50,378 nucleotides of DNA from Elusimicrobiota bacterium (GCA_043732015.1 JAYTIE010000261.1:1-50378); one strand, 5' to 3'; shown: positions 1 to 50,282, counted from the stretch's first letter. A program made the numbers and translations. Notes: generated by a model not told the origin, from the letters alone.

Positions 1-3000
1 GCGGCCGCGGTCGGCAGCGAACGGGGCAACGCTTCCCGTCCAAGAATGGCGATCGTCGGCTCGCGGTCAAGAAGAAGGGTGGTAAGAGAGTCAACGCGCT
101 CGGCCATATCCCGGCCGCTCCGCGCCGTCTTCAGAAGTTCAAGGGCGGCCCTTCCCCGGAATCCGGATGTTTTCCGCATGATCGCCGGATCGTTCGTGAC
201 CGGCATCCTCTCTTCCAGGAGGCTGATTCTGTCAGCGGCTGGCACCTTGTCCATGGCCGCGTTAATGATCGCGATGACTACGCGGTCATCGCTGCCCAGC
301 GCTTTCTGCATTTCTGGGAGAGCCGCATCCCGGGTTGCCGTGTTCTGGTAGAGGGAGACCAGCGCCTTGGCGGCCCGAACGCGGACCGCCGCATGCGTCA
401 CGGCCAACGCCGGGTTGGCGATGTTGACCCCCGTCTGAAGGAAAGGAAGAAGAGCCGCGCCCGTCACGACTTTCGAAAGCGAGTCGAAAGCGCGGCTCGC
501 CACGCCGGTGTTCGGATCCTGCGTCGCCGCCTTGATGAGCGCGGCGCCGACGGCGGCCCGGTTAGCTTCCGGAACGACAACCAAACCCAGGGCACGGGCC
601 GCGGCGTGACGGACCTTCACGTTCACATCGTTCAGGAGAGCCAGAAGGCTTCCATCGAAGGCCTTCGACTTCTCGATCACGGAAATCTTTGCCGTCTTCA
701 CGGTGGGCAGGAAGGGCGCCAGTTCGACGAACCCATTCCAAAGGCGCCTCACGCCGGTGCCGGGAACGCTTCTCCACCATTCGCGGATCGGATCGGCGCC
801 CTTTGCTTCAAAAGAGCGAATGGGCAGGCCGTTAACGAACTGCGAGAGCGTGAAAAGGATTATGCAGACAATCAGGAACGGAACGACGGACGAAAATACC
901 GCAAAGGCGGCGCCAGCGCCTACGAATAGCCCGAAGAAGAGGCGGTTGGATGGCATCGAGATTCTCCCGGCGCGGAGGGACACGAGGAAATCATTCACAG
1001 GGCGGAAGAAAATCTCGACCACATCGGCCATGGCGCGCGCGTAGGCCCACGCGACGCTTCTGAAGACCCGCGAGACGGCGAACGCCGCGGCCAGATTTCC
1101 CCAGCTGAACAGAATCATGAGCCAGACCGGAATCGTCGTGCCGAAGGCCAGCGCGAAAAGCCACGGGCCAAACAGGAACACGATGGCGACAACGCTGACC
1201 CACGCGAGTCCGCCCCATCGCTGGAGCGGCGTCCAGAGCGGGGGCGCCGCCGTGGTAACGAACGCGCCTGCCAGGTTGTTCAACGTCCACATGAGATAGA
1301 GACCCCACGCCACGATCAGAACCGGGTGAAGCGGCATTCCCAGGAGAAGACCCGTGGTCAACACGGCGCCCAGCCGGATCTGCCACTGAACGGCGCTTCG
1401 GGAATAAAGGGTTGCGAAGGAGACCTCGCCGGTCTCCGTTCCGATCAAGTCGCCGGCCTTTGACGTCATTGCGAACGCCGCCGTTCCGAACATGCCGTCC
1501 AGGATTCCGCGCACATGCGACGGAATCGCCATGGTGAACAGTGGGCTGTTGCGGATAATCAGCCAGCTGGTCAGCAGGATTCCTTTCAGAAGTCCGTGTT
1601 TCTCGATGTTCCGGACATACGCCGTACCATTGATGGTTTCGGCCAGGAAGACACCGACAAGCGTCCAGATGACCGGCATCGGAAGACCGATGAACGCGTT
1701 CCATTTCAGAATCAGACCAATCACGACGAACGCGACGATCGCAGCCAGGACGAATGGCTTCTTGTTGTAGAAAAGCGAGTTGAACATGAGACCGATCTTC
1801 CAGTGGACCGGCACGTTGGTGTTCAGCATGAAGCGCATGTAAATGCGCCCGAGAATTTCCTGATATTCCACCTGGCCAGAGGGATATTTGAATCCGCTTG
1901 GATTCAGGTAGATGATCAGGTTGGCGGCGGTTCTCCATCCCTTCTGTTCGTACTCGTCCATCTTGGTCATGAGGCCGAAGAGGATCATGGTGAGCGCCAT
2001 GGCGATGTCTTCTGACACAAGGTCGGTCTGGAGACCTTCAAATTCCTTCAGGGCTTCCATCTCGACATAGAACTTGCCGTATCCACCCATGACATCGGTC
2101 AGTTCCTTCACACGCTGGCCCACCGTGTTCCAGACGCTTTCCGATCCTGAAGAGGCCGCCGCGGTGGGCGTAACAGCGTTGGTGTTTCCGTAGACTGCAG
2201 GCAGGAACATCGCGATGCGCGGATCAGTGAACTCTCTCATCGCGCGGGCGGAGCTCGCCGCGAACACGGGTTCGATGTTCTGCGCGGCGTCCATGCCGGA
2301 GAGGACCTGTCCAAGGAAGGACCACATGCTCCGGCCCCAGCCGCCGTACTTGCAACCTTCGTTCGCGTCGGTCTTGGACGCCTGGAAATAGGTCATGTCG
2401 CTGTTCTGCAGCGTTTCCTGCGCCTTCGAGTAGTCCCGAAGCAGCGTGAAGTTGCGCAGCACCACGTTGGTCGACCCGACCTGTGAGGTAGGCACAACGG
2501 TGGAATTGACGGTCTCGGGGACAAGCTTCACAAGCCGCCGCCAGGAAGGAAGCGCCTGGAATGCGGCGAGCTGGCCGTGAGCTTCCGCCACCGCTTTCGC
2601 GGCGTCCCGGTATTTCTCCATCACTTTCGCGCACGCCGCGAAATGCATGAGGGGATCATTCAATCCATAGACAGCGCTGGACGCGAGTTCATCGACCGCC
2701 GCCAGCTCCGCGGGCGTCGCTCCATATTCCTGGAGTTTTTCGCGAAGCTTTACCTTGATCTCTTCGATGATGTCGTCAATGCCGAAAATGGGCCGATTGT
2801 TGACCTCGTCATACCCACCGACGAAGTAGTCCTCGAAGTAGTTCGCGAATTCTTCAAAGGGCTTCCCCGCGAGGCCTGCGCTGCCCCAGCCGATGTCGCG
2901 ACGCTCTTCTCCGGCGGCAGCCAGATCCCTTTCAAGCGTTTCCCATTCCTGGGACAGGAACGTCGCCAGGTTGTCGCGAAGATCAAACGAAGCGAGATTC

Positions 3001-26912: not shown

Positions 26913-27041
26913 CTGCGTAGTCGAATTCCTCCGCCGCTTTGTCTCCGAAAAAATCCAGGCCCTTCCGTTGCGTCCCCGGATGGTTAACGGGAAAGCATAG
27001 GCCGGGGAAGCCGAGTTTTCACCCCTTCTCTGAGGCCAGTT
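26913..27041 (-). promoter_or_regulatory. 129-nt intergenic spacer between gene A stop and gene B start, with an SD-like GGAGG and a weak hairpin plus T-run
   Basis: On the minus strand, GGAGG lies at 26928-26932, leaving 15 nt before GTG 26912, which is long for a Shine-Dalgarno spacing. A 7-bp imperfect stem (26953-26959 / 26975-26981, one G-U pair, 15-nt loop) is followed by a T-run (plus-strand A-run 26948-26953). Neither element is strong. The short spacer is compatible with co-transcription. Confidence 0.3.
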
Positions 27042-45000: not shown

Positions 45001-48000
45001 AGTTCATACTCGCCGACGCCGACACGGTTAAGGACAAGTGCATTCTCCGGAACCACAAGGGGTCCGTCTTCGATGGCGCCCGGAGGCGCCACTTCCATCT
45101 CATAAAAAATCGGGAAGTTGAGATTATCCAGTGGCTTTCCGAAAGACGAAGCGCCCGCTGCGGCGTTGGCGAGCCCACCGCCTCCGGACGGACTTCCCGA
45201 CGTGGCACCGCCAACCGTGCCGAATCCCGTGGCGGGACCCTCCGGTAGAACAGCGACGACCGTCTTGGTTCCCCCTTTCGCCACGACCGTGCGACCGTCG
45301 CTCGTGAAGGTGAGGACATTCCGGGTCGTGGTTATAAGGTAGTTGGCGCTCAACGATTGTGAAACCAGCTCCTGCTTCTGGCTCGACTGGTCGCTCGCAA
45401 GGGCCTCGCGTCCGATCGCTTCGATGCGGAGAGGCTCATTCGAAACCACTCCGTCACGAACCGCGCTCACCTTGATGGATTTGACTCCCTCAAGGCGGAA
45501 GGAAAAATTATTGAGATCGCTAACATTGATCGTATCGGTCTGAAAAACGCTCCCGTCCTCCAGCGTCACAGTCAACTGCACCTGCGTGACATCGGGCGCG
45601 TTGACGATGCGAAGCTCCGCAGACGGGTTTGTGAAACTCGCTTTGAAAGCCGACGAGAAGGTGACGGTCCCCGAGTCGCTGAAAAACGATGTGACGGCCT
45701 CCGCCACCGCGGTCCCGGCCTGGCTGACGACGTCCATGGCCTTCGCACCGGACGGCACGGCGGTCCCCAGGGGACTGCTGGCCACAAGGACGTCATCCAG
45801 AAGGCTCTGGTCCAGGAACGTCATGTCGGGAGAAGCGAAACGCGCCGCCCCATGCCCGACAAAGATCGCGTAGCGCCCGATAAAGTTGGAGAGGGCGTCG
45901 GCGTTGGCGCCTTCGATGACGGCGGCGGCCAGAGGCGAGAGACTGGGCGCCACGGCGTCGGACAAAGCGTCGAGACTGGAGCGCGGCGCTTCCGATCCGT
46001 CTTTCGGGACAAGGAGGCGGAGGTTCTCGGCATCGGCTGGTTTTCCGCCTGACTCAATTTCAATTTTCAGCTTGTTGGCGGTAACGTCTTTTTCAATGAC
46101 CAGGTCCCCGCCGCGCCCGGAATTCACACGGGAACGGGAAATCTCAGTGTCGTTCAGCATCTGAATGACGATGACACGCACATTCGCCGGAACGCCCGCG
46201 ACAACGATGCCCTTGGCAGCGAACGGAACCCTCGCTTCATACTGGCCCTCGGCCGCTCGACGAAGCTCAACCTGATCGAAACCTTTATCGGACGGTGGCG
46301 CGACATCCATATCAACATTGACGGGAATCTCAATGGCCCCGATCTGCCGGGCCTTCGGCAGTCCATAAACAACTTTTCCCGGAAGTCCGGTGGGCGGATT
46401 GAGCGTGCTGTAGCCTCTCGTTTCACAGATATCCCGCCACCACTGAGGCGCCTGCTCATAGGGAATTACGCGGCCCGGGCTGCTGTCGACCTCCTGATAA
46501 TAAATGGGGATGTGTTCCTGCCCGGGGAGGATGACGTCTTCAACCGCCCTGGTTGCAATCGGAAATTGAATGGGCATGACGATCATGTCTGCCAGGTGGA
46601 GATCGCGCAGACCAAGCCCGGCGGACGCCAGTACACTATCGACCTGACGAACGTTGAATGGAACATCGGTGCGCGAACCGGCGATGAAAGGTGTGGTCAA
46701 TGGATTTGAAATTACGTCTCCCAGCATTTCATCGAGATTGCTGCCGAGGAGATCGGTATTGAAAAAATAAGCGCCTTTCGACCCCAGCACACTCATGCTC
46801 ATGGGCTGAGGGCGCCGCTGTTCGCTGGGCGGCGCTACTTCTCCCGTTCCAACCCGGATCGAGGGAGAGAGGCCGTCAACGCGCTGGCCACCTCGGGTCA
46901 CGGACAAAATTATTTCCGCCGTTCCTTCCGCAAATCGCGGAAGAAGCACTTCCCCGTTGACCACCCTTGCTTGATAGCGGAGCGACTCGCGTCCCGCAGC
47001 GTCCTTGCCAATGACCGCCACCTCGGTGCCGTTCGGAAGACCGGTGATGGTTCCATTGGTCACGGCCGGCGGAATGCGGGCTCTCAGCACCGCACCGCGC
47101 ACGGCATCGTCCGCCAGGCCGACGCGTTCAAAGGCAATAACATCCCCCTCGTTCGCACGCGCTTCATCCACCTTGAGCGTTTCACCGGGAGCGGTGATTG
47201 CCAACGGCGCCGTTTTGGGGAGCTCTTTCTGGGAAATCGAACCCGCGTTCCCTCCGGTGTCGAATCTCGGCCCCGGCTTTCTGATTTTTAATCGGGTGGT
47301 GTCGAAAACGCGGGGATCATGGAGAGCAGGTGTTTCTTCTTCCGCCGGCTGGTTCTTGAATGGCGATTCGTTCTGCGGCGGCACGGTTTTCTCGGAGGTG
47401 GTACCAAAAAGAATCACGGGCGGCTGTGACAGCGGCGTCGCAGGCCGGATCTCGATCCGGTCCGCTCCGGCGGCGATGGGGACGGTAATGGAATTGGAAG
47501 CGTCCGCTTTCACCGGAACGGGGTCTCGCAACCAGCGGCCGTTCGAAATCTGAACAACTTCCACGTTGGTGCCCTGCGGAATTCCCGTGATGACCGCCTG
47601 ATTGGTATTCGGCGTCACACCCGCAAAATAGACCCCGGGAACCGACTGGCCCATGACCTGGCCTTCCGATACCGGCAGACCGACGTTGTTGAGTGGAATG
47701 GGATCAAAAAAGGGCGATCCCCGGTGCACCGGCGTCGCATTAAATCCGGACATATCGACGCCTACGAAAATCAAGTCATTCGCCCATTCGTTCACCCAGG
47801 TGCCGAGCCCCAGCGCGTGCTCCTGGCTGAGCGCCGAATTCACGGCGACGGTACCCATGTTGTAGCCCGACACAATGGGAACGCTTCCCGACGCGGCGTC
47901 GTGCAAAAGATCCGTCGCTTCGACGACGATCGCGGGAGTCAAATCGTGAGAGACGCCGACGTGAGGCAGCATCATGGAAGAAGGAAGGTCCCGGCTTTCA

Positions 48001-50282
48001 AGCTGCCGAACCATGAGACTGTTGTCCCCCCCATAGATTGTTAGCCGGGAGCTGCTGCTCTCGGCCTTATCTCCTCGAACGGCCGTCCAGATGAACGCAA
48101 CGATGGAGACAACCAGAAGGAGAAGAAGGGCCACATGAAAGATATTCCATCCGCTGACAAACAGGGCGCCCCCATTTCCGGCCATTACAAAGTCCGGATT
48201 GAACACGACGGCTGCGAAGGCCATGGCCATGCGTGTCGGCGCAGGGATTCGACCAAAAAGTTTCCAGACTCCAAGGGTGAAGGCCGCCCCGGCATCGGCG
48301 ATGCTTCCCACCATCCCCGCCACCCGGAAGAACGTCTGGTAGGCCCCGGTGATCAAAACTGAAAACCGGATCTTTCCATCGAGAACCGAATCTTTCGCGA
48401 GAGGATCCCCCTTCTTCAGCTCGTTGGAGACCACAAGAGGAACCACGGCATTTCGATTCGAAACCGTCACATCCGTTTGACCCCGCTTGTCTCGCAGCCT
48501 GCCCATCGCCTGCAGGATGGCGAGGAACGTTCCTTCGGTCCGTGCGGCCCCGGTGGCGCCGAGGTTTCCAAGCGCTTCCATTTCCGGGGCGATAAAGAGT
48601 TTTTCTCCGGCGAAAAGCCGGTCGAGCGGCGTCTTTTCCCGCGCGAAGACCGAAAGGTATCCGCTGGCGTCCGACAGGTCCACGTGCGTTACGCGCGGCG
48701 TCGCGACCGCATGCGAAATGCCGCGCTCGCGAAGAAGGCGGCTCAGGTCCGGCGTGTGAAAGCCGCCCGCAATCAGAACCATCGGCGCGTTGCCCTTTCG
48801 GGCTTTCATCACCGCGGCGACCATGGTGCGGCTTCGCTGATCCGCCTCGGTGTAAAAAGACTCGAACGGCGCGAGCGACAGTTTCTCAAACAATTGCGAG
48901 ACAGGTTCCGCAGCAGCGGCGGGCTTCAGCTCACGGTACTCGCGCCAGTCTGAGGGAGTCAGAGCAAACTGGATCAGCTTCTCCGTCAGTCGAAGGCGGC
49001 TGGAGAGATCACAGAGCGCGCGGTCTTCCGTGTTCCGGGACAGTTTCTGGACAACTTCGGCTTCCGCGTTGTGAACTGCCGCGAAAAGCTCCTCCGCATC
49101 GATACCATCGGCAAGCAGGGCGTATTTGACGAACTCGTCGAAGGAAGGATAGGACGAAAGGGAAAGGCCGGCGGACTCACAAAGGGTTTTCAATTCGGAA
49201 TAGTACTGGCCGAATGACACCCGGCCTGAGCGGTACGCGAGACTGAATTCAAGAAGGCGCTGGAGTTCCTTGGTCGAGAGGCGCACGGCCAGCTTCTCGA
49301 CGACCGTGCGACGTTCCCGGTCAACGCGGTCAAAATCCAGACGGGCCTCAATGTCAGCAGCGACAAGAAAACGTTCGAGCGAAAGTTCCGGCTCGACGTT
49401 GAATGCAACCAGCCGGCGCGCGTAAGCCGCAAGGCCAAGCTTGCCTCGGTGGTGCGCGTCACGCGCGTTTTCAAAATCCTGAAGCGCCGCCGGAAGGTGC
49501 GCCGCACGCGCTTTCTCAATAGACGATCTGACGCGCGCGAGGGAAGCCGTTGTCTCCGCTTGAAGAGCGTGCGCCTGAAGGTAGGCGGCGCGGTTGGCAT
49601 CGTAATGCGCGCGGTCGTCAATTCCGAAAAATTTGGGAAGCGGATCCGAAAGAGTCAGTCCGAGGTAAGACGGCGCCGCGATGCGGTTCTCAGCGAGGAA
49701 AGCATTGGCCAGCTCTTCGGTGTCCTTCGACGAACCGCGGAAGTTCGAGAAATCAAAATCTCCGAAAGCGCCTTCGACGCCGATCAGGCGGATGCCTTTT
49801 TCCGTCACCAGAGTCCGGACGGTTTTCGCGATGTTCCCTTGCGCCTCGGCGTTCAGGTGAACGTCCTGAACGATGAGAACGGGAGCGCCGCCCTGTCCCG
49901 CGTAAGCGGACCGAACCGTGGCCAACGTCGAGGGAATGGCGGCGATGAGATCGGTGAGCGCGCGCGGAGCGCTGGCCGTCAGCCGACCGCTGTGGGGAGA
50001 TTGATCAGGCCGGAAAGATGCGGGTCCTGCGGCGGGAAGCGTGTCCAGAAGCCGTTTTGGAGAAATGGCCATCGGCGTCGGAAGGGAGGCGAGTTGGACG
50101 CTTTTTTGTACTGAAGATTTCCGGCGCTGGTCCCAGACCTGGCCGTAGCCCTCCGCTTCCGCCAACGGAAGACCGGCGACCTCATAGAGCATGACCCCGC
50201 ACAAAATGAGCGAGAGACATTTCCTGAACGAAAACGCTGTTTTATTGAAACGAATGTTCATCAAGGATGACCTTGAGAACAA
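27042..50282 (-). CDS. Giant multidomain, multi-pass membrane protein A (complete ORF, 7,746 codons as tracked)
   Basis: ORF-track entry with TAA stop at 27042-27044. The tracked start at 50282 is TTG. The first ATG is at 50261 (MNIRFNKTAFSFRK...) and aligns better with the N-terminus of paralog B, so it is the more likely start. An open frame of this length in GC-rich DNA, the recognisable domain content and the paralogy to gene B all support a real gene. Confidence 0.93.
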   Translation of the reverse strand: MFSRSSLMNIRFNKTAFSFRKCLSLILCGVMLYEVAGLPLAEAEGYGQVWDQRRKSSVQKSVQLASLPTPMAISPKRLLDTLPAAGPASFRPDQSPHSGRLTASAPRALTDLIAAIPSTLATVRSAYAGQGGAPVLIVQDVHLNAEAQGNIAKTVRTLVTEKGIRLIGVEGAFGDFDFSNFRGSSKDTEELANAFLAENRIAAPSYLGLTLSDPLPKFFGIDDRAHYDANRAAYLQAHALQAETTASLARVRSSIEKARAAHLPAALQDFENARDAHHRGKLGLAAYARRLVAFNVEPELSLERFLVAADIEARLDFDRVDRERRTVVEKLAVRLSTKELQRLLEFSLAYRSGRVSFGQYYSELKTLCESAGLSLSSYPSFDEFVKYALLADGIDAEELFAAVHNAEAEVVQKLSRNTEDRALCDLSSRLRLTEKLIQFALTPSDWREYRELKPAAAAEPVSQLFEKLSLAPFESFYTEADQRSRTMVAAVMKARKGNAPMVLIAGGFHTPDLSRLLRERGISHAVATPRVTHVDLSDASGYLSVFAREKTPLDRLFAGEKLFIAPEMEALGNLGATGAARTEGTFLAILQAMGRLRDKRGQTDVTVSNRNAVVPLVVSNELKKGDPLAKDSVLDGKIRFSVLITGAYQTFFRVAGMVGSIADAGAAFTLGVWKLFGRIPAPTRMAMAFAAVVFNPDFVMAGNGGALFVSGWNIFHVALLLLLVVSIVAFIWTAVRGDKAESSSSRLTIYGGDNSLMVRQLESRDLPSSMMLPHVGVSHDLTPAIVVEATDLLHDAASGSVPIVSGYNMGTVAVNSALSQEHALGLGTWVNEWANDLIFVGVDMSGFNATPVHRGSPFFDPIPLNNVGLPVSEGQVMGQSVPGVYFAGVTPNTNQAVITGIPQGTNVEVVQISNGRWLRDPVPVKADASNSITVPIAAGADRIEIRPATPLSQPPVILFGTTSEKTVPPQNESPFKNQPAEEETPALHDPRVFDTTRLKIRKPGPRFDTGGNAGSISQKELPKTAPLAITAPGETLKVDEARANEGDVIAFERVGLADDAVRGAVLRARIPPAVTNGTITGLPNGTEVAVIGKDAAGRESLRYQARVVNGEVLLPRFAEGTAEIILSVTRGGQRVDGLSPSIRVGTGEVAPPSEQRRPQPMSMSVLGSKGAYFFNTDLLGSNLDEMLGDVISNPLTTPFIAGSRTDVPFNVRQVDSVLASAGLGLRDLHLADMIVMPIQFPIATRAVEDVILPGQEHIPIYYQEVDSSPGRVIPYEQAPQWWRDICETRGYSTLNPPTGLPGKVVYGLPKARQIGAIEIPVNVDMDVAPPSDKGFDQVELRRAAEGQYEARVPFAAKGIVVAGVPANVRVIVIQMLNDTEISRSRVNSGRGGDLVIEKDVTANKLKIEIESGGKPADAENLRLLVPKDGSEAPRSSLDALSDAVAPSLSPLAAAVIEGANADALSNFIGRYAIFVGHGAARFASPDMTFLDQSLLDDVLVASSPLGTAVPSGAKAMDVVSQAGTAVAEAVTSFFSDSGTVTFSSAFKASFTNPSAELRIVNAPDVTQVQLTVTLEDGSVFQTDTINVSDLNNFSFRLEGVKSIKVSAVRDGVVSNEPLRIEAIGREALASDQSSQKQELVSQSLSANYLITTTRNVLTFTSDGRTVVAKGGTKTVVAVLPEGPATGFGTVGGATSGSPSGGGGLANAAAGASSFGKPLDNLNFPIFYEMEVAPPGAIEDGPLVVPENALVLNRVGVGEYELDLPKEFTGGTLVGVPNGSDLTIIGYDAAGKEIFRQEIEKAPGRTEFRIEIFPKKIRVIIMKDEKRVDTDDKTLILIPKSASKDGGKKAGEKVGAADERQSLEQNLEDAGEQPQIGNPIPGVAPEDAKPEAQGEAVYSDGKTSMTNRERVALALTVVVTAVAASSVFGRGNSGPGVGTSSQGAGSTEGLGNTTWLTLVPEDNTTLSVPLTNEQAGSGLFVVIAVPEGQSLRFRFTLNGQVVSEKLSAPGANGTFEVAVPSGRFDKFSVTRLNSAGGLADLLVGDVAFVYLNGTRPSASAVSKPTATQTTPLTMYEFLVLWELMTYQTFIDQYLPGRLRTLYGNGEADIELFSGIRVRIKLISYPQPGGSPSPKTASPASGQSGTPPVQEKPREQPSLGYVIPYSFDIEKPGTPDEGPEGAFGDLVFRPVENQPGTYEARVPVTLEAATIRAVPQGTKLVITGFDANGKQVWTETIENAGGDVRVEIVLGTNKITVKLTDKNGNAVPLPGNFRIFPTDPRKKQGNKTEDRRPLQLVPDQKNGNAATESDAAEIAAGINVEGNIDSEDSQPASNTEGSSTSGLALIGAAALSLLGVALTATKKAAEKVMKTEADTVERPTAPRRTRTRTSTTRPQVRDREMHFYFSTRYGLDYLETWEGRDGLRKDPRLLDSPEGQRWLSTRRGERWLRSADGAAYLASNRGIVFLGTASGRRFLSSYIGGEWLRTAPGRIWLGTPAGFNWLATRAGAAWLSMPSNNWIPTGEGLRFLQTEAGHRWLLTAGEGWLNTRLGQIFLASAESNSFLSSRYGGQWLSGISGQIWLGTPQGFQWLATNSGRLWIESNDAAGFRATPLFRAYISSAFGQGWLSSEFGQAWLTDAAYSTTEIAAAFRSTDQFSRILRTPAGTDWLLSTVGISWISSTDGHLWFTSEAGIAFLGSAVTPRARAAASRVSLGRDATMADLLSSLLGRAWAEKTLPASITEAPKKPASAQRESLVLPAIYVSVFAFFSLGASSPFGIMSVGVVTMVLIAASIFLSALLLVRWAVRSNRAARSDTGAPLTAPRLDIRTRFWYTIVVAAALMLTAAGLANAPTITFTVLGAIAAFVVTSVIWRPLGFAVVQAVSRVLHRQRKETVAAIILAITGTIFMPQLPTFSSLRNEFSPAAQQAAPLPRAPPIGNPDMARKGIPYVTGIPAIPIDQRRLELGSLDATLPKAYLDSAIVQARVKELQASLDKMNAGAVPISTLGNADTANVLMTFDVALNGRQQIGGKSVEEARKEFLQLVRRIPKHDGGPVVSFFATPGPVVPGKKPYEMHRAFEQKVRAGETIQLAKTAMMLWALSEPGAERTELFSMARSAMDFLVDMQDPETGELMFSTARQGPTGEFQITFTGLVRSFALATGEDRYMDAYSAAARRLVSAHYDGRGFTAGTKDSAGFQNAEDLDPWALSELGPDALVEIFARVDQITVSEAIIRVRRLIQNLQAQPRDLIVADWYVSRTNGLRWGAAWLDNEAKNTTNAEADALRREAADARTGADRLTRLLFSLPLMPAAKGRGMAYSYQIKTGAVDRFDAASWQPAVGSTLPFLNFSAPDGTARTAMTYLLALRQGHDLAAPVDPTTGRLIDWAGLKGAAQQEAGRVAGTPAVFAHGSGTPFRLEKAEDLARQSLSVRRAVRELLNDIDGRKTFLAGVEILPNGEIGRRFQRADSLPAMAFKVPYDRVRTGAPTETEVAAGIRWFRGDKGYAYLISPIPGGTVLLIVIPPEGASVRSNPENWNQILTSPGMSEVPFSSTKRMMGQLVLLGRVSGMVMEIPVDAPSGYLGKVTPRAQQLTDPADRLMAENLIREMELEARFAQGVGRQKLLDYASSLRRAWLAETVTGERHEDYPVLREIRTELQKETFGTPRQKQLMEDYRQARIDLWWLADHRAKLNQAMEKAEIPTEQELAISGIPTIQPFGPLVGQLMVEARIAGIRERLNAAQNIIRFGQESNHFRDPVTGRFNVVASKGGVARARQSLTGIDAEIGRLRGAVGDNTAQISALTAARQRISGAIEWAVTRGYSEVTSGINNFERIYLELDELIQNLYREVRDPATTAGRRDAAIAELAEISATESWKTKTTRYALFYGTSQSLRDLAAYRKAQIGPSANHRGFPSVFGASPILPTPTDVRFGRQTPVTEGYRLDSRGLTVAAITEGQGAQTVRFLRFQDILGAVEGELRGEDIRINGVLLKNAELPLSSDARITGKNLVFVRFQNGQMATRPHNIFESRDLIVRDATRLTTDGTAPTVKNFFERVEARYKEGALKTRMERTSAPDRPGVVSLTNRDGYQYQEKYNVPVWENPDAYLVERSRGADWVENHSQQFFNVKTGRTVSGHIEIRVGGFLVKTMDKTGVDKAGRVTYAVKEMHREVQPGGAVVSVTHNEYSATYEGRFLHSTFHPDRNEFVFRDVGKERALFERTGEEFDLRAATVYKDPANGKMTMKVRHNVDIELDPDDRFVGLTETQVLAGATRDAASSSAPLPDTVSAIIARDAGKQLPVLPAGQVHEWKIIRSGPVAGNLNNFYGDSVDPVREIETPEILTVVSHEPVATPLGRIVIGREIGRTSYRKTPTGQFTLQDGTLSALATIDVPTAAGELRMPFGAPVLEGKTLKQGAAQGPLATAQWDTRARAIVRSVGGAFLMDQAPATHTNGRVFVLNEKRLVVGLNENASQEVQEVDPKGRAVAVYQVIRPRNDGIRAEHYRLFMTGSQWDNDLQLWIAGESEMQSYVVATANPDRPAEMVAPSYRTVEKSKSGKALDFDPLMPDEASGPLVRRTFESKHPILGDTLGRPQTRVFDAGGRVVSITKSIENAESVIYFPREDTMALRNVHAASTNIKLPASNFADTAFVAVSVKSGKRDGLRMIFTDGTNMVVIGKDGNGSFYSTEEAASAAYSIKNGDKVVQASMVPMRDNVRAVDHPSGSDIVIVPVADLLLLGLDVTKITSVTLENNEGNIDAVSDLRRFRLPGDATVEGTPLGRSVVEVDGQKKISKTAGPVVVTRGSRGNTVIEYGPADSRISEVWVWGELMERTFNVREGNQVRPVTVRFVAAPDAALTQPFAMYDSPTGWQSALLVDSSNLQAVVQQSIGNGYQGVKLEVHIRYEIYIENGEIISAPYVTLYNPYTFIYTRLHNGILPRKNIPANAYNALLRHLGVTDPFIAPYLKTVDVALLDAAGRKDAIAAHFPIYGHQRNPVPKASDAAVKGSMPNRGTAANSSPVIVDQILGKALTNPTGLPATQTGNEVSDLAYAERLQLYFAAVTDTKDEAAATQAFLPIWNRLKEGREPAFSAYNVMHGSPEERNIEYNVPGMAEKKILPQFAFADVGLRYWAKTGDERGLQLFFRMFRHGLDYRSKVNGKNGFVHWEPGEPLIVAGLPNAYRPPDGYLTVDNVKAYFYLKNFQAVLNQMKAQAIGNPVMQATIERNAAEIDLAVKKQEEWLRKYVVDRPHGFLTPARLREQRDYRGLDQLPNPSDVSLIVEELRTEAESSMLMILAKKRMGGYSDEVLRHDLDEALSVFGVWVQGPNGRRLYGLTWGMPTSVREGLSPEMTALLLMTASEIHHDNAAALARMSLNSIPLQNGLFPEIVGIDANSVPLKTGISTGEGQIIFPTSETTPPPLMIGDAQAPSALQPDRTAELEKTPRRFEGQPFVTLAVNLAENGNNPLSPIVLGNQAKAQLAAGQNAVLNDPTLDLSEKIVDQPVQRLWNVMWNNVNSVSITIKVIIVKYALLFFWTILTWLAFRGMRITINGRTIAKIDGYRSQFLNWEVPPEMIAALNGRDPQQVYRGWLNDFATDILGVDHWFGDFSIVLKQEGGVNKASAESLFLFNLLITYLTLRAFHDTTPVPGAPAEATPTQAEIRALVYGIQDDFAKRLIQLGKGENPEEVNQLVYDDREIFLYEIREELRARLAVRVGMNPRPTFWNRTRGQLTAENTPSLETTLNRVGMVKGEGGVFTFDGDTYEKSLNKWKRTEPLSSLGTGSIHSMLKLSMHVFFYVFWALLLIAAFHGVMTFGVDPWLETIPTAISMAQNVWGTRLLMGGLAAGVVFRLLAYRSPNLSTLTPGVVRLLSRRRLARMGSGLSLIASIIGIMFISPPTLDMGIIQFAFSGALAAQAIVRLVWDQSLIGNTLKWMFSFAASWSGMMGTIMFHQRLLLFFAIAVPLGMNVWPFFYASYTSAQSIGIFASVAGFAVAALLPGLYKKLTWGTVGNFLVTGAGVTTWLVLGQGLTLHLSLGLGIGAGIVSAALINFLGFVGRELGLKGVKGLKLGLPSLADYRWIPMKHVIATGLLIQFWISFYFNHEVRMMVAGMGLILTLILSRYANKILLTFFAGIVILYKELITTPFKLRTVPSMIGYSLFSVGLLAGAGWLFLLTASPLILIAQWSVGILAVNVAVFVVIALIQKAYRAVNREPRDGFALTVMAGLDSLASPAFLAAAYVNGNPNADSTTKLVMENWTRYRQAKSRALYLWAYANSELLERAAIGYGIPGQLFRGWPIKALNEKMADAVISRLFNELHELEISADFPLYDPDIQLWNPNTPQPFSLRRPSQTDEDRRRLVLAHRTRRWMIDVLSTSKGGSAYDTAISMVEGVKVWRAEKDRNPALFAKKYLIPFNFVLTAGQDPRMVDNEMRQRQKLIDLMNFIAGEGEQVAVAGQLVPIEQTTPEMRQAAGLEPIASGVKVAGNFMAKAVAMQGVSYLFLQSSNLKFDQANILAVKDRNGVSDDPYEELRDEMDIMGDKSLGSIFPDRDTKLGPQTGGDFSLNPKYGEGGMSTIQRALLAVYNTEALAPGWEFRESIEGMTKLPVRLSMDPLYPTKPLTRRLRDRIGTWYSNWDNAYGSVGAWINLLFQSEDYGSSLAVAQTERDIGVMMWRRMSNLLYRKMREGGPSYQLNAARWRWVMGLLQLLASTFIRIIYIHAPISFYDKESRGDGEEYYLLSPLIMANITLMGMLILLNWTSFVGIDAVWFLYGSLAMLVLAVHGMIRAIRLTGPITGPAKWLSEWWTGITVWAGGVNTENAAMNQGLVLGLNWNYSFNPSAPPVLTIDNSWQYFQEQMANPSMAGRFKMARMAFAEQAVSGLIYMGFYYAALMNLDVLNVVLLYLPLLVISGLLLANYVNENVIGRKGVLHWMFKPLGLISGVLISGLIFVAYGILPGASVYAGLAIAIISGFYVLAKALPRAAKGGHFSPNSISVFITSTLLALGVLTMDQFFLFTIGSWMAFFIGRTLINVGLWLFSVLTGLNVRGQKVPNLIKPLDKILRGSISWLAGREETRARYATILTRNTILGFVASLWLGIVPISGVVSYNIGDRVVPMPLADFVFGTLLIILVGVIIMNLGAMISWLVDRFVFAGRMKKLVKEEDYGRTTAGDRIRSSQVNSLWSAALSMIDVWGERIFSIYLRRIFLIIRGRGPASDTPGRANPRPAAPESTTPLPTEPEETAPVTLPVTTVNAAGATGLAAVMIGGVAITNTKQLFDVINGLSKQGQFDNYAFAILDALVNNDFEWTAEERLARAKVLYLAADLYSRSKNMREARRLLTIVYGELKDLPNPDQDVLTKMRDLIGHDVADAAKPIGKQEPAPKTVAERREKDETRTPPPARTASRTPVGSTVRNTGLLALLVILFGASGAQAAPLEGLGQAVVSAHFNPILILVAIASFVLILAYKFRARLFTAVAAIARAATSGGTKRIVPLPTNLMPPPSQDETLISRGKSVARLYSIASKPVADRSAEELLEAINIINGFPEEAPLGVGTAFDRPSADIGEFQGQLNGLRDQSLQAVMEGVDLAYNKKKPTSVENAIKETNKGDLFEKIILTPAGSSINDIVRKVRALNGQMGDRRFEVEVRLETDNESISVDDLAAALAAADLGFSFGVKTWASLPESADIAAGELMRLKDGSKAPFVRFMVSQGAILPENANAILQTLSSEMPDRLAILFILSDGAQAVNLNLTEFLDMKKFALIASQA
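27940..28095 (-). other. Gene A C-terminal pair of TM segments preceding a ~290-aa unassigned C-terminal domain
   Basis: NTGLLALLVILFGASGAQAA ... HFNPILILVAIASFVLILAYKF. The remaining 27042-27930 encodes a mixed alpha/beta sequence that I do not recognise. Confidence 0.55.
28885..30200 (-). other. Gene A polytopic TM bundle downstream of the synthase-like domain (about 10 TM segments)
   Basis: LLSPLIMANITLMGMLILLNW ... AVWFLYGSLAMLVLAVHGMI ... GLIYMGFYYAALMNLDVLNVVLLYLPLLVISGLLLA ... GLISGVLISGLIFVAYGIL ... YAGLAIAIISGFYVLA ... VFITSTLLALGVLTM ... FFLFTIGSWMAFFIG ... LINVGLWLFSVLTG ... ILGFVASLWLGIVPISGV ... FVFGTLLIILVGVIIMNLGAMISWLV. Confidence 0.75.
30200..31720 (-). other. Gene A cytosolic domain with FKS/GT48-like (processive beta-glucan synthase-like) motifs
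   Basis: Motifs in order: RRWMIDVLSTSKGGSAYDTAISMVEGVKVW; KYLIPFNFVLTAGQ; GNFMAKAVAMQGVSYLFLQSSNLKFDQANI (cf. QNHAIIFTRGE.LQTIDMNQDNY); LFQSEDYGSSL (SED at 30372-30380; cf. LSEDIFAG); SYQLNAARWRWVMG (approx 30225-30265; cf. GEQxLSRxxYxLG of GT48 and QxxRW of GT2). The domain sits between two TM bundles. It is weaker than the gene B counterpart. Confidence 0.42.
31725..32980 (-). other. Gene A polytopic TM bundle upstream of the synthase-like domain (about 10 or more TM segments)
   Basis: Near-continuous hydrophobic helices: HVFFYVFWALLLIAAFHG ... LLMGGLAAGVVFRLLAY ... GLSLIASIIGIMFI ... IIQFAFSGALAAQAIV ... LLLFFAIAVPLGMNVWPFFYA ... GIFASVAGFAVAALLPG ... LGLGIGAGIVSAALINFLGFV ... GWLFLLTASPLILIAQWSVGILAVNVAVFVVIALI. 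Confidence 0.75.
33695..33780 (-). other. Gene A single TM segment
   Basis: ITIKVIIVKYALLFFWTILTWLAFRG. Confidence 0.6.
34090..35200 (-). other. Gene A alpha/alpha-toroid-like module 2
   Basis: DVGLRYWAKTGDERGLQLFFRMFRHGLDYRSKVNGKNGFVHWEPG, VDNVKAYFYLKNFQAVL, RLYGLTWGMPTSVREGLSPEMTALLLMTASEI. The last element parallels the GYDF...ISFE.TAE element of the gene B toroid-like modules. Confidence 0.4.
35300..38600 (-). other. Gene A long beta-rich region with scattered YD/RHS-like hairpin motifs
   Basis: Alternating polar/hydrophobic short strands and D-x-x-G-R-h-h turns, e.g. MDKTGVDKAGRVTYAVKE, VDPKGRAVAVYQVIRP, VFDAGGRVVSITKSIENAESVIYF. No canonical domain recognised. Confidence 0.3.
38680..39535 (-). 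other. Gene A long alpha-helical, coiled-coil-like segment
   Basis: Charged, heptad-like, proline-poor stretches: LMAENLIREMELEARFAQGVGRQKLLDYASSLRRAW, EDYRQARIDLWWLADHRAKLNQAMEKAE, IDAEIGRLRGAVGDNTAQISALTAARQRISGAIEW, ERIYLELDELIQNLYREV. Confidence 0.45.
40150..41100 (-). other. Gene A alpha/alpha-toroid (six-hairpin)-like module 1
   Basis: Helix-rich with toroid-type features: TAMMLWALSEPGAERTELFSMARSAMDFLVDMQDPETGELMFS, DRYMDAYSAAARRLVSAHYDGRGFTAG, DLDPWALSELG. The element A..FL...Q....G is typical of alpha/alpha toroid repeats. Confidence 0.4.
41570..42025 (-). other. Gene A hydrophobic cluster (about 5-6 TM segments)
   Basis: LVLPAIYVSVFAFFSLGASSPFGIMSVGVVTMVLIAASIFLSALLLVRW ... FWYTIVVAAALMLTAAGLA ... 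ITFTVLGAIAAFVVTSVIW ... VAAIILAITGTIFMP. Confidence 0.65.
42200..42990 (-). repeat. Gene A array of about 26 nonapeptide repeats, consensus x-x-G-x-x-(W/F)-L-x-(S/T)
   Basis: RRGERWLRS ADGAAYLAS NRGIVFLGT ASGRRFLSS YIGGEWLRT APGRIWLGT PAGFNWLAT RAGAAWLSM ... ISGQIWLGT PQGFQWLAT NSGRLWIES ... PAGTDWLLS TVGISWISS TDGHLWFTS EAGIAFLGS (aa ~2431-2695). The period is 27 nt and the nucleotide level is degenerate. Confidence 0.85.
43205..43272 (-). other. Gene A single TM segment followed by a strongly basic stretch
   Basis: SGLALIGAAALSLLGVALTATKKAAEK, then ERPTAPRRTRTRTSTTRPQVRDRE. By the positive-inside rule the following repeat would be cytoplasmic. Confidence 0.6.
43450..47650 (-). repeat. Gene A region with 5 divergent copies of a ~95-aa beta-sandwich-like module plus one lectin/CBM-like module
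   Basis: Module positions are approx 47440-47650, 46850-47150, 46000-46285, 44765-45045 and 43450-43745. They share a pattern such as ..G.YEARVP....G.I.GVP.GT.V.I.G.DA.GKE........G....I.I....KI.V......V......L.L.P. Examples are GQYEARVPFAAKGIVVAGVPANVRVIVIQ, GEYELDLPKEFTGGTLVGVPNGSDLTIIGYDAAGKEIF and GTYEARVPVTLEAATIRAVPQGTKLVITGFDANGKQVW. An extra beta-rich module lies at 44128-44432. Conservation is at protein level only. Confidence 0.55.
44500..44560 (-). other. Gene A single TM segment
   Basis: RERVALALTVVVTAVAASSVFGRG. Confidence 0.55.
48078..48362 (-). other. Gene A hydrophobic cluster 1 (about 3-4 TM segments)
   Basis: SVLITGAYQTFFRVAGMVGSIADAGAAFTLGVWKLF ... AMAFAAVVFNPDFVMAGNGGALFVSGWNIFHVALLLLLVVSIVAFIWTAV (aa ~641-735). 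Confidence 0.65.
48588..49886 (-). other. Gene A TraB/GumN/TIKI-superfamily-like domain with a large helical insert (aa ~133-565)
   Basis: VLIVQDVH-LNAEAQ...IRLIGVEGAFG resembles the N-terminal hhhGTxH...hhhE signature. EADQRSRTMVAAVMKA resembles the central ERDxxM element. MVLIAGGFHTPDLSRLLRERGI resembles the C-terminal hhhGxxHxxGhxxxL signature. The family pattern is recalled from memory and no profile search was run. Confidence 0.5.
50154..50222 (-). other. Gene A N-terminal signal anchor or signal peptide
   Basis: Basic n-region (FSFRK) followed by the hydrophobic stretch CLSLILCGVMLYEVAGLPLAEA (aa ~21-43). Confidence 0.65.

Follow-up and report, generated by a model that had tools for sequence, protein, structure and literature searches.

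Giant genes of uncultivated bacteria represent a recognised blind spot. The giant proteins described from Omnitrophota and from further uncultivated bacteria of the PVC type (bioRxiv 10.1101/2023.11.21.568195; PMC11573180) are very large, contain many transmembrane (TM) segments and yield almost no HMM domains, and for those of predatory or episymbiotic Omnitrophota a role in attack on or attachment to other cells has been proposed. Elusimicrobiota are also rich in uncharacterised giant proteins, to which no function has been assigned (PMC11573180; bioRxiv 10.1101/2023.11.21.568195). The window analysed here is a whole contig of 50,378 nt from an Elusimicrobiota bacterium and holds only two genes, termed A and B, whose products resemble the Omnitrophota-type giants in size, number of TM segments and scarcity of HMM domains. 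A further likeness is a carbohydrate-type (alpha/alpha)6 domain, which in those giants was found only by structure prediction and which belongs to the same template class (5ZHB). However, the Omnitrophota giants comprise at least 30,000 aa, whereas A and B measure 7.7 to about 9.5 kaa. SecA-DEAD-like, dockerin and peptidase C39/S8 domains are absent from A and B (no SecA-type Pfam match at E<=1), which instead carry a TIKI/ChaN-like N-terminal domain (N-domain), a conserved C-terminal tail and the layout of tandem paralogues.

Both genes are encoded on the minus strand, as are all features of A and B given below. Gene A (27042..50282) is complete, with 7,746 codons from a TTG at 50282 to a TAA stop at 27042-27044; its public record starts at an ATG at 50261 and gives a protein of 7,739 aa, and the identical protein (P0002) is present in a public collection. 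The 5' part of gene B (3..26912) extends from a GTG at 26912, with GGAGGA upstream, to base 3, where it runs off the contig end after at least 8,970 codons. The relative L023 is 42% identical over B 6846-8815 and then continues to a stop that follows the family C-terminal motif described below; B therefore probably lacks about 500 aa beyond the contig end, for a predicted full length of about 9,500 aa. The two genes share a frame and are separated by 129 nt (26913..27041), just as the initial annotation had recorded. A single gene broken by a stop could be ruled out, since A ends in the family motif and B opens with a signal peptide and an N-domain of its own. The common frame is a coincidence. 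Neither a promoter-like site nor a terminator was found in the gap (scan of 26700-27300), the sole terminator-like match in the scanned region (27142-27156) lying inside gene A, and the two genes are probably co-transcribed.

The other two minus-strand frames contain 21-33 stops per 1,000 codons, so that 7,746 stop-free codons would arise with a probability of about e^-200 and chance is excluded. In the ORF frame, GC3 (0.73) exceeds GC1 (0.62), which exceeds GC2 (0.45); of 33 windows of 1.5 kb, 32 follow this order. The plus strand also contains long ORFs, of up to 934 aa, but these were dismissed as shadow ORFs, since they all share a single antisense frame, their periodicity is inverted and their Arg content is 11-14%. 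Near-identical DNA repeats, already judged not to account for the gene sizes, are absent: TRF returned one 47-nt array, and the sole direct repeat is a 47-nt pair (77%). No Rfam match was obtained over the window. Pfam searches with the whole halves and with 20 segments of A and B gave a single match above cut-off, the HEAT repeats at the tail of B (429..644; aa 8757-8828), while NCBIfam returned no match for ten key segments and a homologous-protein search with A 1-720 returned a single match. A and B are demonstrably real genes and family members, and the identities of their modules hold at the level of fold or superfamily.

A and B belong to a very large, Elusimicrobiota-specific protein family with constant ends and a freely varying, multi-TM middle. 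A profile search with the N-domain retrieved 8,217 cluster representatives, in which the domain was always N-terminal, and all 20 loci found in species-representative genomes were from Elusimicrobiota, with several paralogues per genome. The N-domains of A and B are 25-53% identical to those of 20 homologues, and both proteins contain the signal peptide and the N-domain of about 450 aa that characterise the family. The opposite end is marked by the motif R-phi-[IV]-[LA]-x-[QA]-A-COOH, and a terminal Ala was present in 92 of 117 long family members compared to a background of 9.7%. The C-terminal segment of A (27045..27179) ends in ...LAILFILSDGAQAVNLNLTEFLDMKKFALIASQA-COOH, and its last residues (...KKFALIASQA) fit the motif; the end of B lies off the contig, but L023 ends in ...ILRLIKRQA. 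Neither A nor the relative P0003 was picked up by a general HMM of the C-terminal domain, derived from 90 members, and the C-terminal claim is limited to the consensus of the last ~10 residues and a weaker hydrophobic pattern upstream. Tandem arrangements recur: at three other loci (L002, L003 and L021) an upstream gene ends in the C-terminal motif and is followed by a family gene after 0-120 nt. The initial annotation had not seen the pair as one case of a huge lineage-specific family with common tandems, and no description of a family that combines a TIKI/ChaN-like N-domain with a conserved tail at the C-terminus was found in the literature. Eleven family members contained 54 Pfam families, including kinases, AAA ATPases and WD40 domains, so that the family overall is not a glycan machine and its constant parts must serve a more general purpose.

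The constant N-terminal part starts in A with a signal peptide or anchor (50151..50228; aa 19-44, ...LPLAEA) that could be aligned with its counterparts in B and in 18 homologues. The N-domain follows at 48573..49910 in A (aa 125-570) and at 25269..26585 in B (aa 110-548), the latter being 40.6% identical to its counterpart in the BLASTP alignment. Its conserved residues in A are D140-x-H142, E170, R483 and G506-G507-x-H509; E170, R483 and H509 are invariant and D140 and H142 are kept by 90% or more of the 21 sequences compared. The spacing from H to E is 28 residues and that from R to H is 26; the corresponding distances in RRSP, a TIKI peptidase, are 28 and 29 (PMC6254334). With the TIKI/TraB/ChaN/erythromycin-esterase superfamily (PF04187, PF01963 and PF05139) the domain shares a predicted alpha/beta core and the order and spacing of these residues, but its first acid is Asp instead of Glu, its core is split by a helical insertion of about 270 aa and it occurs as the N-terminal fusion partner in giant membrane proteins. 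PF04187 was matched by 8 of the 21 homologues, one of them above the cut-off (28.5 versus 27.7 bits), and the seven matches that were inspected all end at profile position 203-204 of 213. One homologue matches Erythro_esteras (E 0.022), whereas A and B themselves gave no Pfam match for the TIKI, ChaN or EreA models. In an AF2 model of the N-domain of A (pLDDT 85), the core is of the beta-alpha-beta type and the motif residues sit at the C-terminal ends of strands or beside them: in model numbering, DVH 46-48 lies in and just after strand 37-46, E76 just after strand 72-75 and H415 three residues after strand 407-412. Foldseek matches of this model in the PDB were dominated by the long helical insertion and included no TIKI or ChaN protein and none at E<0.05; a PDB sequence search with the N-domain profile gave nothing significant. 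The matches of homologues to PF04187 and the residues with their spacing support a TIKI/ChaN-like N-domain at the superfamily level, and at this level the TraB/TIKI-like domain of the initial annotation could be upheld.

A and B had been described as colinear paralogues throughout, derived from an old duplication of an already giant gene. BLASTP aligned A 12-566 with B 1-548 (E 3e-119) and, besides, gave one marginal match of 60 aa. One more common module of about 450 aa, at A 2966-3420 and twice in B (1746-2227 and 4433-4924), was found through relatives and is about 20% identical between the proteins. Similarity beyond the N-terminus is confined to these two matches, so that colinearity applies to the N-terminal ~550 aa and one module and to nothing else, and the proposed duplication of a giant colinear gene was not supported. 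A ~115-aa module in five copies and a block of nonapeptide repeats occur in A and are missing from B, whereas windowed BLAST showed an internal duplication of 450 aa in B.

The common module (40023..41387 in A; copy 1 at 20232..21677 and copy 2 at 12141..13616 in B, the copies being ~30% identical) was modelled from A 2940-3420 with moderate confidence (AF2, pLDDT 63, pTM 0.72). All of the top 50 Foldseek matches in the PDB were (alpha/alpha)6 carbohydrate-active enzymes or contained such a domain (E 2.6e-3 to 3e-2, TM-scores 0.3-0.5), among them cellobiose 2-epimerase (5ZHB), GH8, GH116, AGE and the cyclic glucan synthase Cgs. By sequence, the best indications were AGE in the PDB (E 0.2) and GlcNAc_2-epim in Pfam (E 0.034), neither of them significant, and a PDB sequence search with the toroid profile gave nothing significant. 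The structure prediction supports an (alpha/alpha)6-toroid module of putative enzymatic activity, and the alpha/alpha-toroid-like block proposed earlier was borne out in both proteins.

Near its C-terminal end, B is predicted by a crude hydropathy method to contain four TM segments (4212..4634; aa 7427-7567), then a soluble region of 730 aa that forms the synthase-like cytoplasmic domain, and at least six further TM segments (aa 8298-8687). The region from aa 8244 to 8564 (1221..2183) resembles GT48, the family of FKS and callose synthases, and this similarity was detected via relatives. B matches P0003 with an E value of 5e-16, and P0003 and L025 match the same part of PF02364 with E values of 0.0025 (16.5 bits) and 3.4e-5 (22.7 bits), below the cut-off of 37.2. 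Comparison of B plus relatives with GT48 by hhalign gave probabilities of 95.2% and 95.7% (E 2.5e-8 and 9e-9), the reference being 16 PF02364-annotated database proteins retrieved with a yeast Fks1 fragment as query, a fragment used for this retrieval only; B alone gave 1.1%. The profile homology runs from the ED catalytic motif through the membrane helices after it. VSED of B aligns to LNED, which contains the catalytic residues E1221 and D1222 of Fks1 (PMC12715860), and E8301-D8302 (window 2007-2012) is invariant in the five-sequence alignment. No match of A or B to PF02364 was obtained at E<=10, and nothing of this kind in the window reaches the Pfam threshold. No evidence was obtained for the N-terminal, nucleotide-binding half of a GT-A domain, Pfam giving no signal in B 7400-8240, and the retrieved GT48 sequences start downstream of this UDP-glucose-binding, DAN-motif half. 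A homologous-protein search with the GT48-like alignment gave no match and a PDB sequence search with the profile gave nothing significant. The 'GGR...QCGKGR' residues adjoining the ED motif are altered in B, and the module may therefore be catalytically dead or use another substrate. The evidence from relatives supports a glucan-synthase (GT48/FKS)-like membrane region in B, of putative activity.

A contains a comparable succession of TM bundle (aa 5778-6187), soluble part (6188-6682) and TM bundle (6683-7119) at 28926..32951. Against the GT48 and B-type profiles this block gave no signal, its scores falling within the range of shuffled sequences, and no aligned ED motif could be assigned; by eye, A has an 'SED' whose distance from a TM helix resembling that of B equals the distance in B, an observation that was not counted as evidence. 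Of the glucan-synthase-like domain that had been ascribed to both proteins, the part concerning B stood and that concerning A did not. The signal anchor, the TM clusters and the TM bundle, soluble domain and TM bundle near the C-terminus were seen by hydropathy in both proteins, as previously described.

The five ~115-aa modules of A (43497..47759; aa 842-950, 1009-1133, 1304-1414, 1706-1825 and 2139-2262) lie near TM segments at aa 1910 and 2340. They are probably beta-sandwiches, but their Pfam matches (Cadherin-like and Glucodextran_B) are all sub-threshold and do not establish the beta-sandwich blocks of the initial annotation; its YD-like blocks found no counterpart, since none of the 20 segments matched an RHS/YD Pfam family at E<=1. 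Farther along A, at least 22 tandem nonapeptides of the pattern G-x-x-W/F-L-x-S/T-x-x (42204..42986; aa 2433-2693) are followed by a hydrophobic cluster of five predicted TM segments (41559..42029; aa 2752-2908). B contains a module of about 790 aa (9606..11972; aa 4981-5769) that shares 34% identity with P0085 from a different Elusimicrobia MAG. All TM calls for A and B are crude hydropathy calls. Parity and the positive-inside rule place the toroids of B outside and its synthase-like domain inside; for the first ten TM segments of B, the positive-inside check gave seven agreements, three ties and no disagreement.

The reading that is preferred here, with a probability of roughly 45%, is that A and B are tandem, separate and probably co-transcribed members of the family that act as inner-membrane proteins of glycan synthesis or remodelling. 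Topology, enzymatic activity, substrate and what the N-domain and the tail do are predictions throughout the following model. Every family member carries a Sec-type signal peptide and then a TIKI/ChaN-like domain, predicted to be extracytoplasmic, with a hydrolase-type 2His/2acid+Arg signature; complete members end in the C-terminal motif, and TM clusters and soluble modules are exchanged freely in between. In A and B these middles would be glycan-related. B may thread its GT48/FKS-like module into the membrane with the soluble part in the cytoplasm, the ED motif kept and TM bundles on both sides, and may expose on the outer face a loop of about 5,600 aa with the two toroid modules. A would contribute one toroid, five ~115-aa spacer modules and an analogous TM/soluble/TM block. 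B would most likely polymerise and export a beta-glucan-like envelope polymer, which the toroids of B (and A) could cut, isomerise or hold outside the membrane, following the logic of cyclic beta-1,2-glucan synthase. The presence of both toroids and a GT48-like region makes the 'self-contained polysaccharide machine' of the initial annotation a reasonable reading for B, but A shows no synthase similarity.

That the ORFs are assembly chimeras or non-functional relics, i.e. fused fragments or decaying pseudogenes, is scarcely credible and has been largely refuted. Protein A is carried by one contig of one assembly only, B is cut by the contig end, and more than 90% of the residues of both lack a detectable homologue or domain. 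Yet 16,700 codons are unbroken with uniform GC at codon positions, there are no repeats able to mislead an assembler, A has proper family N- and C-termini, and colinear relatives of parts of A and B occur on independent contigs; family members of 3,000-7,500 aa were found on contigs of 200-870 kb, and P0003 (7,525 aa) sits on a contig of 234 kb. It is unlikely that A and B are cell-surface attack or attachment proteins, whose long loops would reach another cell, whose toroids would degrade its wall polysaccharide and whose ~115-aa modules would form a stalk or adhesin. [quoted passage not shown] Such a role would nevertheless agree with the resemblance of the toroid fold to glycoside hydrolases and to 5ZHB, a template also found in Omnitrophota giants, with the very long TM-free stretches predicted outside the membrane, the five repeated modules of A, the near absence of Cys from both proteins and the place of Elusimicrobiota among the giant-gene-rich phyla.

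A MARTX-like carrier or polyprotein, in which the TIKI-like peptidase and the tail would serve insertion, processing or delivery and the middle would be cargo cut into separate working proteins, the glycan modules of A and B being one cargo set among others, appears improbable as well. This idea draws on the constant ends and hypervariable middle of the family, where 11 members contain 54 Pfam families that are unrelated and in many cases represent enzymes normally found in the cytoplasm, and on the endopeptidases with the same catalytic signature in the TIKI superfamily (PMC6254334). M48 peptidase domains were detected by Pfam in two of the 11 relatives, visual inspection alone pointed to HExxH beside TM segments in L023 and to CPBP-like TM motifs in relatives, and the conserved terminal Ala with its hydrophobic motif resembles a recognition tag. 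However, no HExxH motif was found in A or B, neither cleavage sites nor an autoprocessing domain nor translocation repeats came to light, the N-domain is a putative peptidase at most and has Asp in place of Glu as first acid, and the many TM segments between modules better fit a permanently membrane-embedded protein. Possible but doubtful is a broader proposal, in which thousands of giant proteins form a phylum-wide cassette of TIKI-type domain, recognition tail and exchangeable middle, and B contains a genuine prokaryotic relative of GT48.

The N-domain signature and the C-terminal motif provide a handle on a family of more than 8,000 sequence clusters, together with recurrent tandems, a layout of constant ends and variable middle, and testable module assignments for A and B. 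The cassette reading, if true, would be a new principle of bacterial envelope organisation. A bacterial GT48-like synthase, if borne out, would bear on the origin of the fungal and plant beta-1,3-glucan synthases, offering a bacterial sister group for a family that has been characterised in eukaryotes and whose origin is unknown, and would hint at an undescribed envelope glucan in a phylum of which very few members have been cultured. Should the GT48 assignment fail, A and B would remain ordinary representatives of an uncharacterised family of giant genes.

Among characterised proteins, Fks1 and callose synthase (CAZy GT48, PF02364) share with B the order, predicted for B, of TM bundle, large cytoplasmic domain and TM bundle as well as the ED motif. 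In contrast to them, B is bacterial, its module is embedded in a protein of 9 kaa and remains below the Pfam threshold, and the residues flanking ED are altered. The cyclic beta-1,2-glucan synthase Cgs (~2,800 aa; 8RF0/8RF9) also combines a polytopic glycosyltransferase with (alpha/alpha)6 glycan-processing domains in one chain, as a self-contained machine for synthesis and tailoring, but belongs to other enzyme families (GT84, GH94-type), is three times smaller and has no sequence similarity to A or B. The catalytic domains of Cgs face the cytoplasm, whereas the toroids of B are predicted outside the membrane. MARTX toxins resemble the A/B family in being giant, with conserved ends and variable central modules, one of which, RRSP, is a TIKI-family peptidase; they differ in having type I secretion, glycine-rich repeats and a cysteine-protease processing domain, none of which was found in A or B, and in having no internal TM clusters. 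The A/B pair belongs with the known giant genes of uncultivated bacteria.

A and B, the two giant minus-strand genes of the window, were established as real and distinct. They lie in tandem and belong to a large family without a name, restricted to Elusimicrobiota, whose ends are constant and whose middle varies. The window is a complete public contig without a single N and contains essentially these two open reading frames and nothing else. Gene A runs from a TTG start at 50282 to a stop at 27042 and comprises 7,746 codons (the public record starts at the ATG at 50261), while gene B starts with a GTG at 26912, preceded by GGAGGA, and is still open at base 3, at the contig end, after 8,970 codons. 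They are spaced by 129 nt, and a search of this gap for promoter-like and terminator-like sites found none. The remaining two minus-strand frames contain 21-33 stops per 1,000 codons, and in 33 consecutive 1.5-kb segments the GC content by codon position in the ORF frame follows the order GC3 0.73 > GC1 0.62 > GC2 0.45; GC3 is the highest value in 32 segments and GC2 the lowest in all 33. Because of this stop density and codon-position periodicity, A and B are coding sequences and not chance ORFs. Plus-strand ORFs of up to 934 aa were considered as genes and rejected as shadow ORFs of A and B, since all lie in a single antisense frame, whose codon position 1 is the sense wobble position, and display a GC1 of 0.74-0.78 (GC1 > GC3) and 11-14% arginine; those of 500-930 aa, identified by composition and frame, include 32025-34766, 34833-37637 and 4758-6803. 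An Rfam scan of the window gave no match. Cysteine is nearly absent from both proteins, with five residues in the 7,746 aa of A (four inside the first 424 aa) and seven in the 8,970 aa of B.

The initial annotation regarded A and B as colinear paralogues in one common frame that arose by duplication of an already giant gene and do not owe their size to near-identical repeats. The last point is correct, as TRF reported one array of 47 nt and a single direct repeat reaches 40 nt or more, a 47-nt pair (77%; 42514-42560 and 42778-42824) within a nonapeptide block of A. The ORF coordinates bear out the common frame, which is a coincidence. A finishes with the family tail motif, and B has a signal peptide of its own at its start. 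Colinearity holds for the N-terminal region (BLASTP, A 12-566 to B 1-548, 40.6% identity, E 3e-119), for one further module and for the coarse order of parts; the remainder is private to A or B, and BLASTP beyond the N-terminus returned a single marginal 60-aa match. The second common module was detected via third-party relatives and is located at aa 2966-3420 in A and, in two copies, at aa 1746-2227 and 4433-4924 in B; A and B share approximately 20% identity in it, and the B copies are 30% identical to each other. Private to A are five copies of a module of about 115 aa (aa 842-2262) and at least 22 tandem units of the nonapeptide GxxW/FLxS/Txx (period 9; aa 2433-2693, window 42204-42986, minus strand). 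The latter block sits immediately before a five-TM cluster and matched no Pfam family. B contains a 790-aa module (aa 4981-5769, window 9606-11972) that is 34% identical to P0085, a family protein from another Elusimicrobia MAG. P0085 and P0001, the closest relative by N-terminal domain, belong to one fragmented MAG (GCA_019246835.1), which probably carries orthologous giant genes fragmented by assembly. The coarse order shared by A and B, namely N-terminal domain, TM cluster, a very long TM-free part bearing the second common module, a TM bundle/soluble domain/TM bundle block and tail, is a family-level layout and no proof that an already giant gene was duplicated.

The family was delimited by searching 1.84 billion cluster representatives with a profile built from the first 720 aa, which yielded 8,217 proteins, 2,643 of them at E<=1e-30. 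In the best 150 matches listed, the domain is found at the N-terminus and lengths range from fragments of approximately 400 aa up to 7,739 aa. All 20 confirmed loci in species-representative genomes belong to Elusimicrobiota MAGs, including 'Ca. Obscuribacterium magneticum', and up to three paralogues occur per genome in this collection. At no fewer than three loci (L002, L003 and L021) the immediate upstream neighbour is likewise a giant gene, with 0-120 nt between its end and the following gene, and the upstream genes of L003 and L021 start with the family signal peptide and a W-x-(D/E)-R motif; at L013, an ORF about 5 kb upstream bears the family N-terminal domain sequence and the tail motif. 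As tandem giant genes are present at other family loci, the head-to-tail layout is recurrent, and the architecture is not confined to this locus. No Pfam or NCBIfam model covers the N-terminal domain or the remainder of A and B, with HEAT repeats at B 8757-8828 as the sole exception.

Alanine is the last residue in 92 of the 117 family representatives that exceed 1,200 aa (background 9.7%), and the tail consensus is R-phi-[IV]-[LA]-x-[QA]-A-COOH, preceded by a stretch of hydrophobic pattern. A ends in ...KKFALIASQA (window 27045-27179) and P0003, a family member of 7,525 aa, in ...LIASQA. B is probably short of only about 500 aa at its C-terminus, because the metagenomic relative L023, which is 42% identical to B 6846-8815, runs approximately 660 aa beyond and then closes with the family tail ...ILRLIKRQA. 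L023 (L023:1-10143, Ga0207121_1040) also carries HEAT repeats resembling those of B's tail and two 'HExxHLxGxGE' zinc-peptidase-like motifs adjoining TM segments; no HExxH motif occurs in A or the visible part of B. Between its constant ends the family is a mosaic: 11 members of 3,600-5,000 aa contain 54 different Pfam families at E<1e-5, including ABC1 kinase (three members), M48 peptidase (two) and, in a single member each, WD40 propellers, GH77, GT5 starch synthase, AAA_5, LRR and others. Since kinases, ATPases and propellers occupy the middle of proteins that have them in common, the N-terminal domain and the tail must serve generic roles, for which processing, quality control and docking are candidates. 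The hydrophobic, alanine-terminated form of the tail suggests a resemblance to C-terminal tags read by PDZ proteases and ClpX adaptors. In five members (P0013, P0038, P0044, P0065 and P0067), recurring TM modules with the motifs W-E-x-x-x-F ... H ... H-x-x-Y-N look, by eye only, like CPBP/Abi intramembrane proteases; such modules are absent from A and B.

The N-terminal domain was aligned for 21 sequences, and the (near-)invariant positions are Q-D140-x-H142-x-N-x-E-A-Q, E170-G-A, N230, E312, R483 and G506-G507-x-H509. PF04187 (ChaN, 'Tiki superfamily') matches eight of the 21 homologues, one of them above the curated cut-off (28.5 vs 27.7 bits), and the seven matches examined one by one all stop at profile position 203-204 of 213, in the GGFHT strand; one homologue was also matched by the erythromycin esterase model. 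Defining features of the TIKI superfamily are a core of parallel beta-strands, catalytic residues of the 2His/2Glu type and a conserved arginine, and the TIKI peptidase RRSP uses E3900-x-H3902, E3930, R4001 and H4030 with His-Glu and Arg-His spacings of 28 and 29 (PMC6254334); those of the family domain are 28 and 26. An AlphaFold model from a 35-sequence alignment (pLDDT 85, pTM 0.79) places the signature residues at or just past the strand C-termini of a beta-alpha-beta core that is split by a helical insertion of about 270 residues. Foldseek of this model against the PDB gave no significant match, and searching PDB sequences with a profile returned no hits. At the superfamily level the domain appears TIKI/ChaN-like, with the signature present. 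The segment before it (...LPLAEA) resembles a cleavable signal peptide, which would place the domain outside the cytoplasm. One relative in an Elusimicrobia MAG (L019:9749-11392, a 648-aa open frame) joins this domain directly to a uracil-DNA-glycosylase (PF03167, E 1.6e-18), which is odd for a protein bearing a signal peptide.

Two modules in the middles were established, an (alpha/alpha)6 toroid present once in A and twice in B, which is the second common module, and a GT48-like membrane module in B. For the toroid, an AlphaFold model of A 2940-3420 (six-sequence alignment; pLDDT 63, pTM 0.72) displays helical hairpins, and the top 50 Foldseek matches in the PDB are all (alpha/alpha)6 carbohydrate-active enzymes or contain such a domain (E 2.6e-3 to 3e-2, probability 1.00 for most). 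They include the methylmannose-polysaccharide hydrolase MmpH, the cellobiose 2-epimerases 3WKF and 5ZHB (TM 0.41-0.50), GH8 Rex8A, GH116, GlcNAc 2-epimerase, invertase, GH105 and the cyclic beta-1,2-glucan synthase Cgs. Sequence-level matches, none significant, hint in the same direction (AGE, E 0.2 in the PDB; GlcNAc_2-epim, E 0.034, and C5-epim_C, E 0.081, in Pfam). The earlier designation as alpha/alpha-toroid-like thus gains support for the fold rather than for a catalytic role. Verification failed for half of the specific domain calls made at that stage.

The glucan-synthase-like cytosolic domain, originally assigned to both proteins, has support in B, through transitive homology at the profile level, and none in A. 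Residues 8146-8537 of B are homologous to 5746-6134 of P0003 (phmmer domain E 5e-16), and P0003 matches PF02364 (Glucan_synthase) at profile positions 595-688 with E 0.0025, as does a second relative (L025) for the same part with E 3.4e-5, both under the gathering score; B itself does not match PF02364. Genuine PF02364-annotated proteins were retrieved with an Fks1 fragment as query and 16 of them aligned as a GT48 set. Profile-profile comparison with this set gave a probability of 95.2% for B and P0003 (E 2.5e-8, 293 columns) and 95.7% for a five-sequence profile that includes three metagenomic relatives (E 9e-9); B alone was not significant. In the alignment, 'VSEDIAMALTMILFG' of B pairs with 'LNEDIYAGMNAxxRGG' and 'SFATLYSRSA' with 'PFSxLYSRFA'. 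The ED pair that is catalytically essential in Fks1 (E1221/D1222; PMC12715860) corresponds to E8301/D8302 of B and is invariant in the five-sequence alignment; the residues adjoining it differ between B and GT48. No counterpart of the GT domain's nucleotide-binding half was found in B, and the GT48 sequences compared start downstream of that half. The TM/soluble/TM block of A gave no signal against GT48 or the B-type profile, with HMM scores inside the shuffle range.

Hydropathy analysis of B called a signal peptide, three TM segments at 654-730, one each at 1293 and 6923, four at 7427-7567 and a bundle from 8298. Counting from an exported N-terminal domain, this crude predictor places 731-1292 inside, 1312-6922 outside and 7568-8297, the soluble part of the synthase-like region, inside. 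The predicted outer stretch is a 5,600-aa TM-free segment that contains both toroid copies. For the first ten segments, seven agree with the positive-inside rule, three tie and none disagrees. The layout predicted in this crude manner matches that of Fks1.

Giant multi-TM genes have been reported before from uncultivated bacteria, among them Elusimicrobiota; this phylum is enriched in proteins of more than 5,000 or 10,000 aa, none with a functional assignment (PMC11573180; bioRxiv 10.1101/2023.11.21.568195). A literature search found no published account of how this family is defined or how large it is, nor of its C-terminal motif, its tandem arrangement or the GT48-like module. With codon periodicity throughout both frames, an artefactual origin of A and B is highly improbable. 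An outward-directed role in attachment or wall degradation, as proposed for the Omnitrophota giants, is a more serious contender, although an unlikely one, and a MARTX-like carrier or polyprotein logic is considered equally doubtful. The most likely reading, at a probability of roughly 45%, is synthesis and export by B combined with toroid processing by B and A. B would assemble a glucan-type polymer on the cytoplasmic side and pass it through its own TM bundle, and the toroids carried by the extended outer loops of both proteins may then bind, trim or isomerise it. The proposed mechanism would share a common design principle with cyclic beta-1,2-glucan synthase, realised by A and B on a larger scale.
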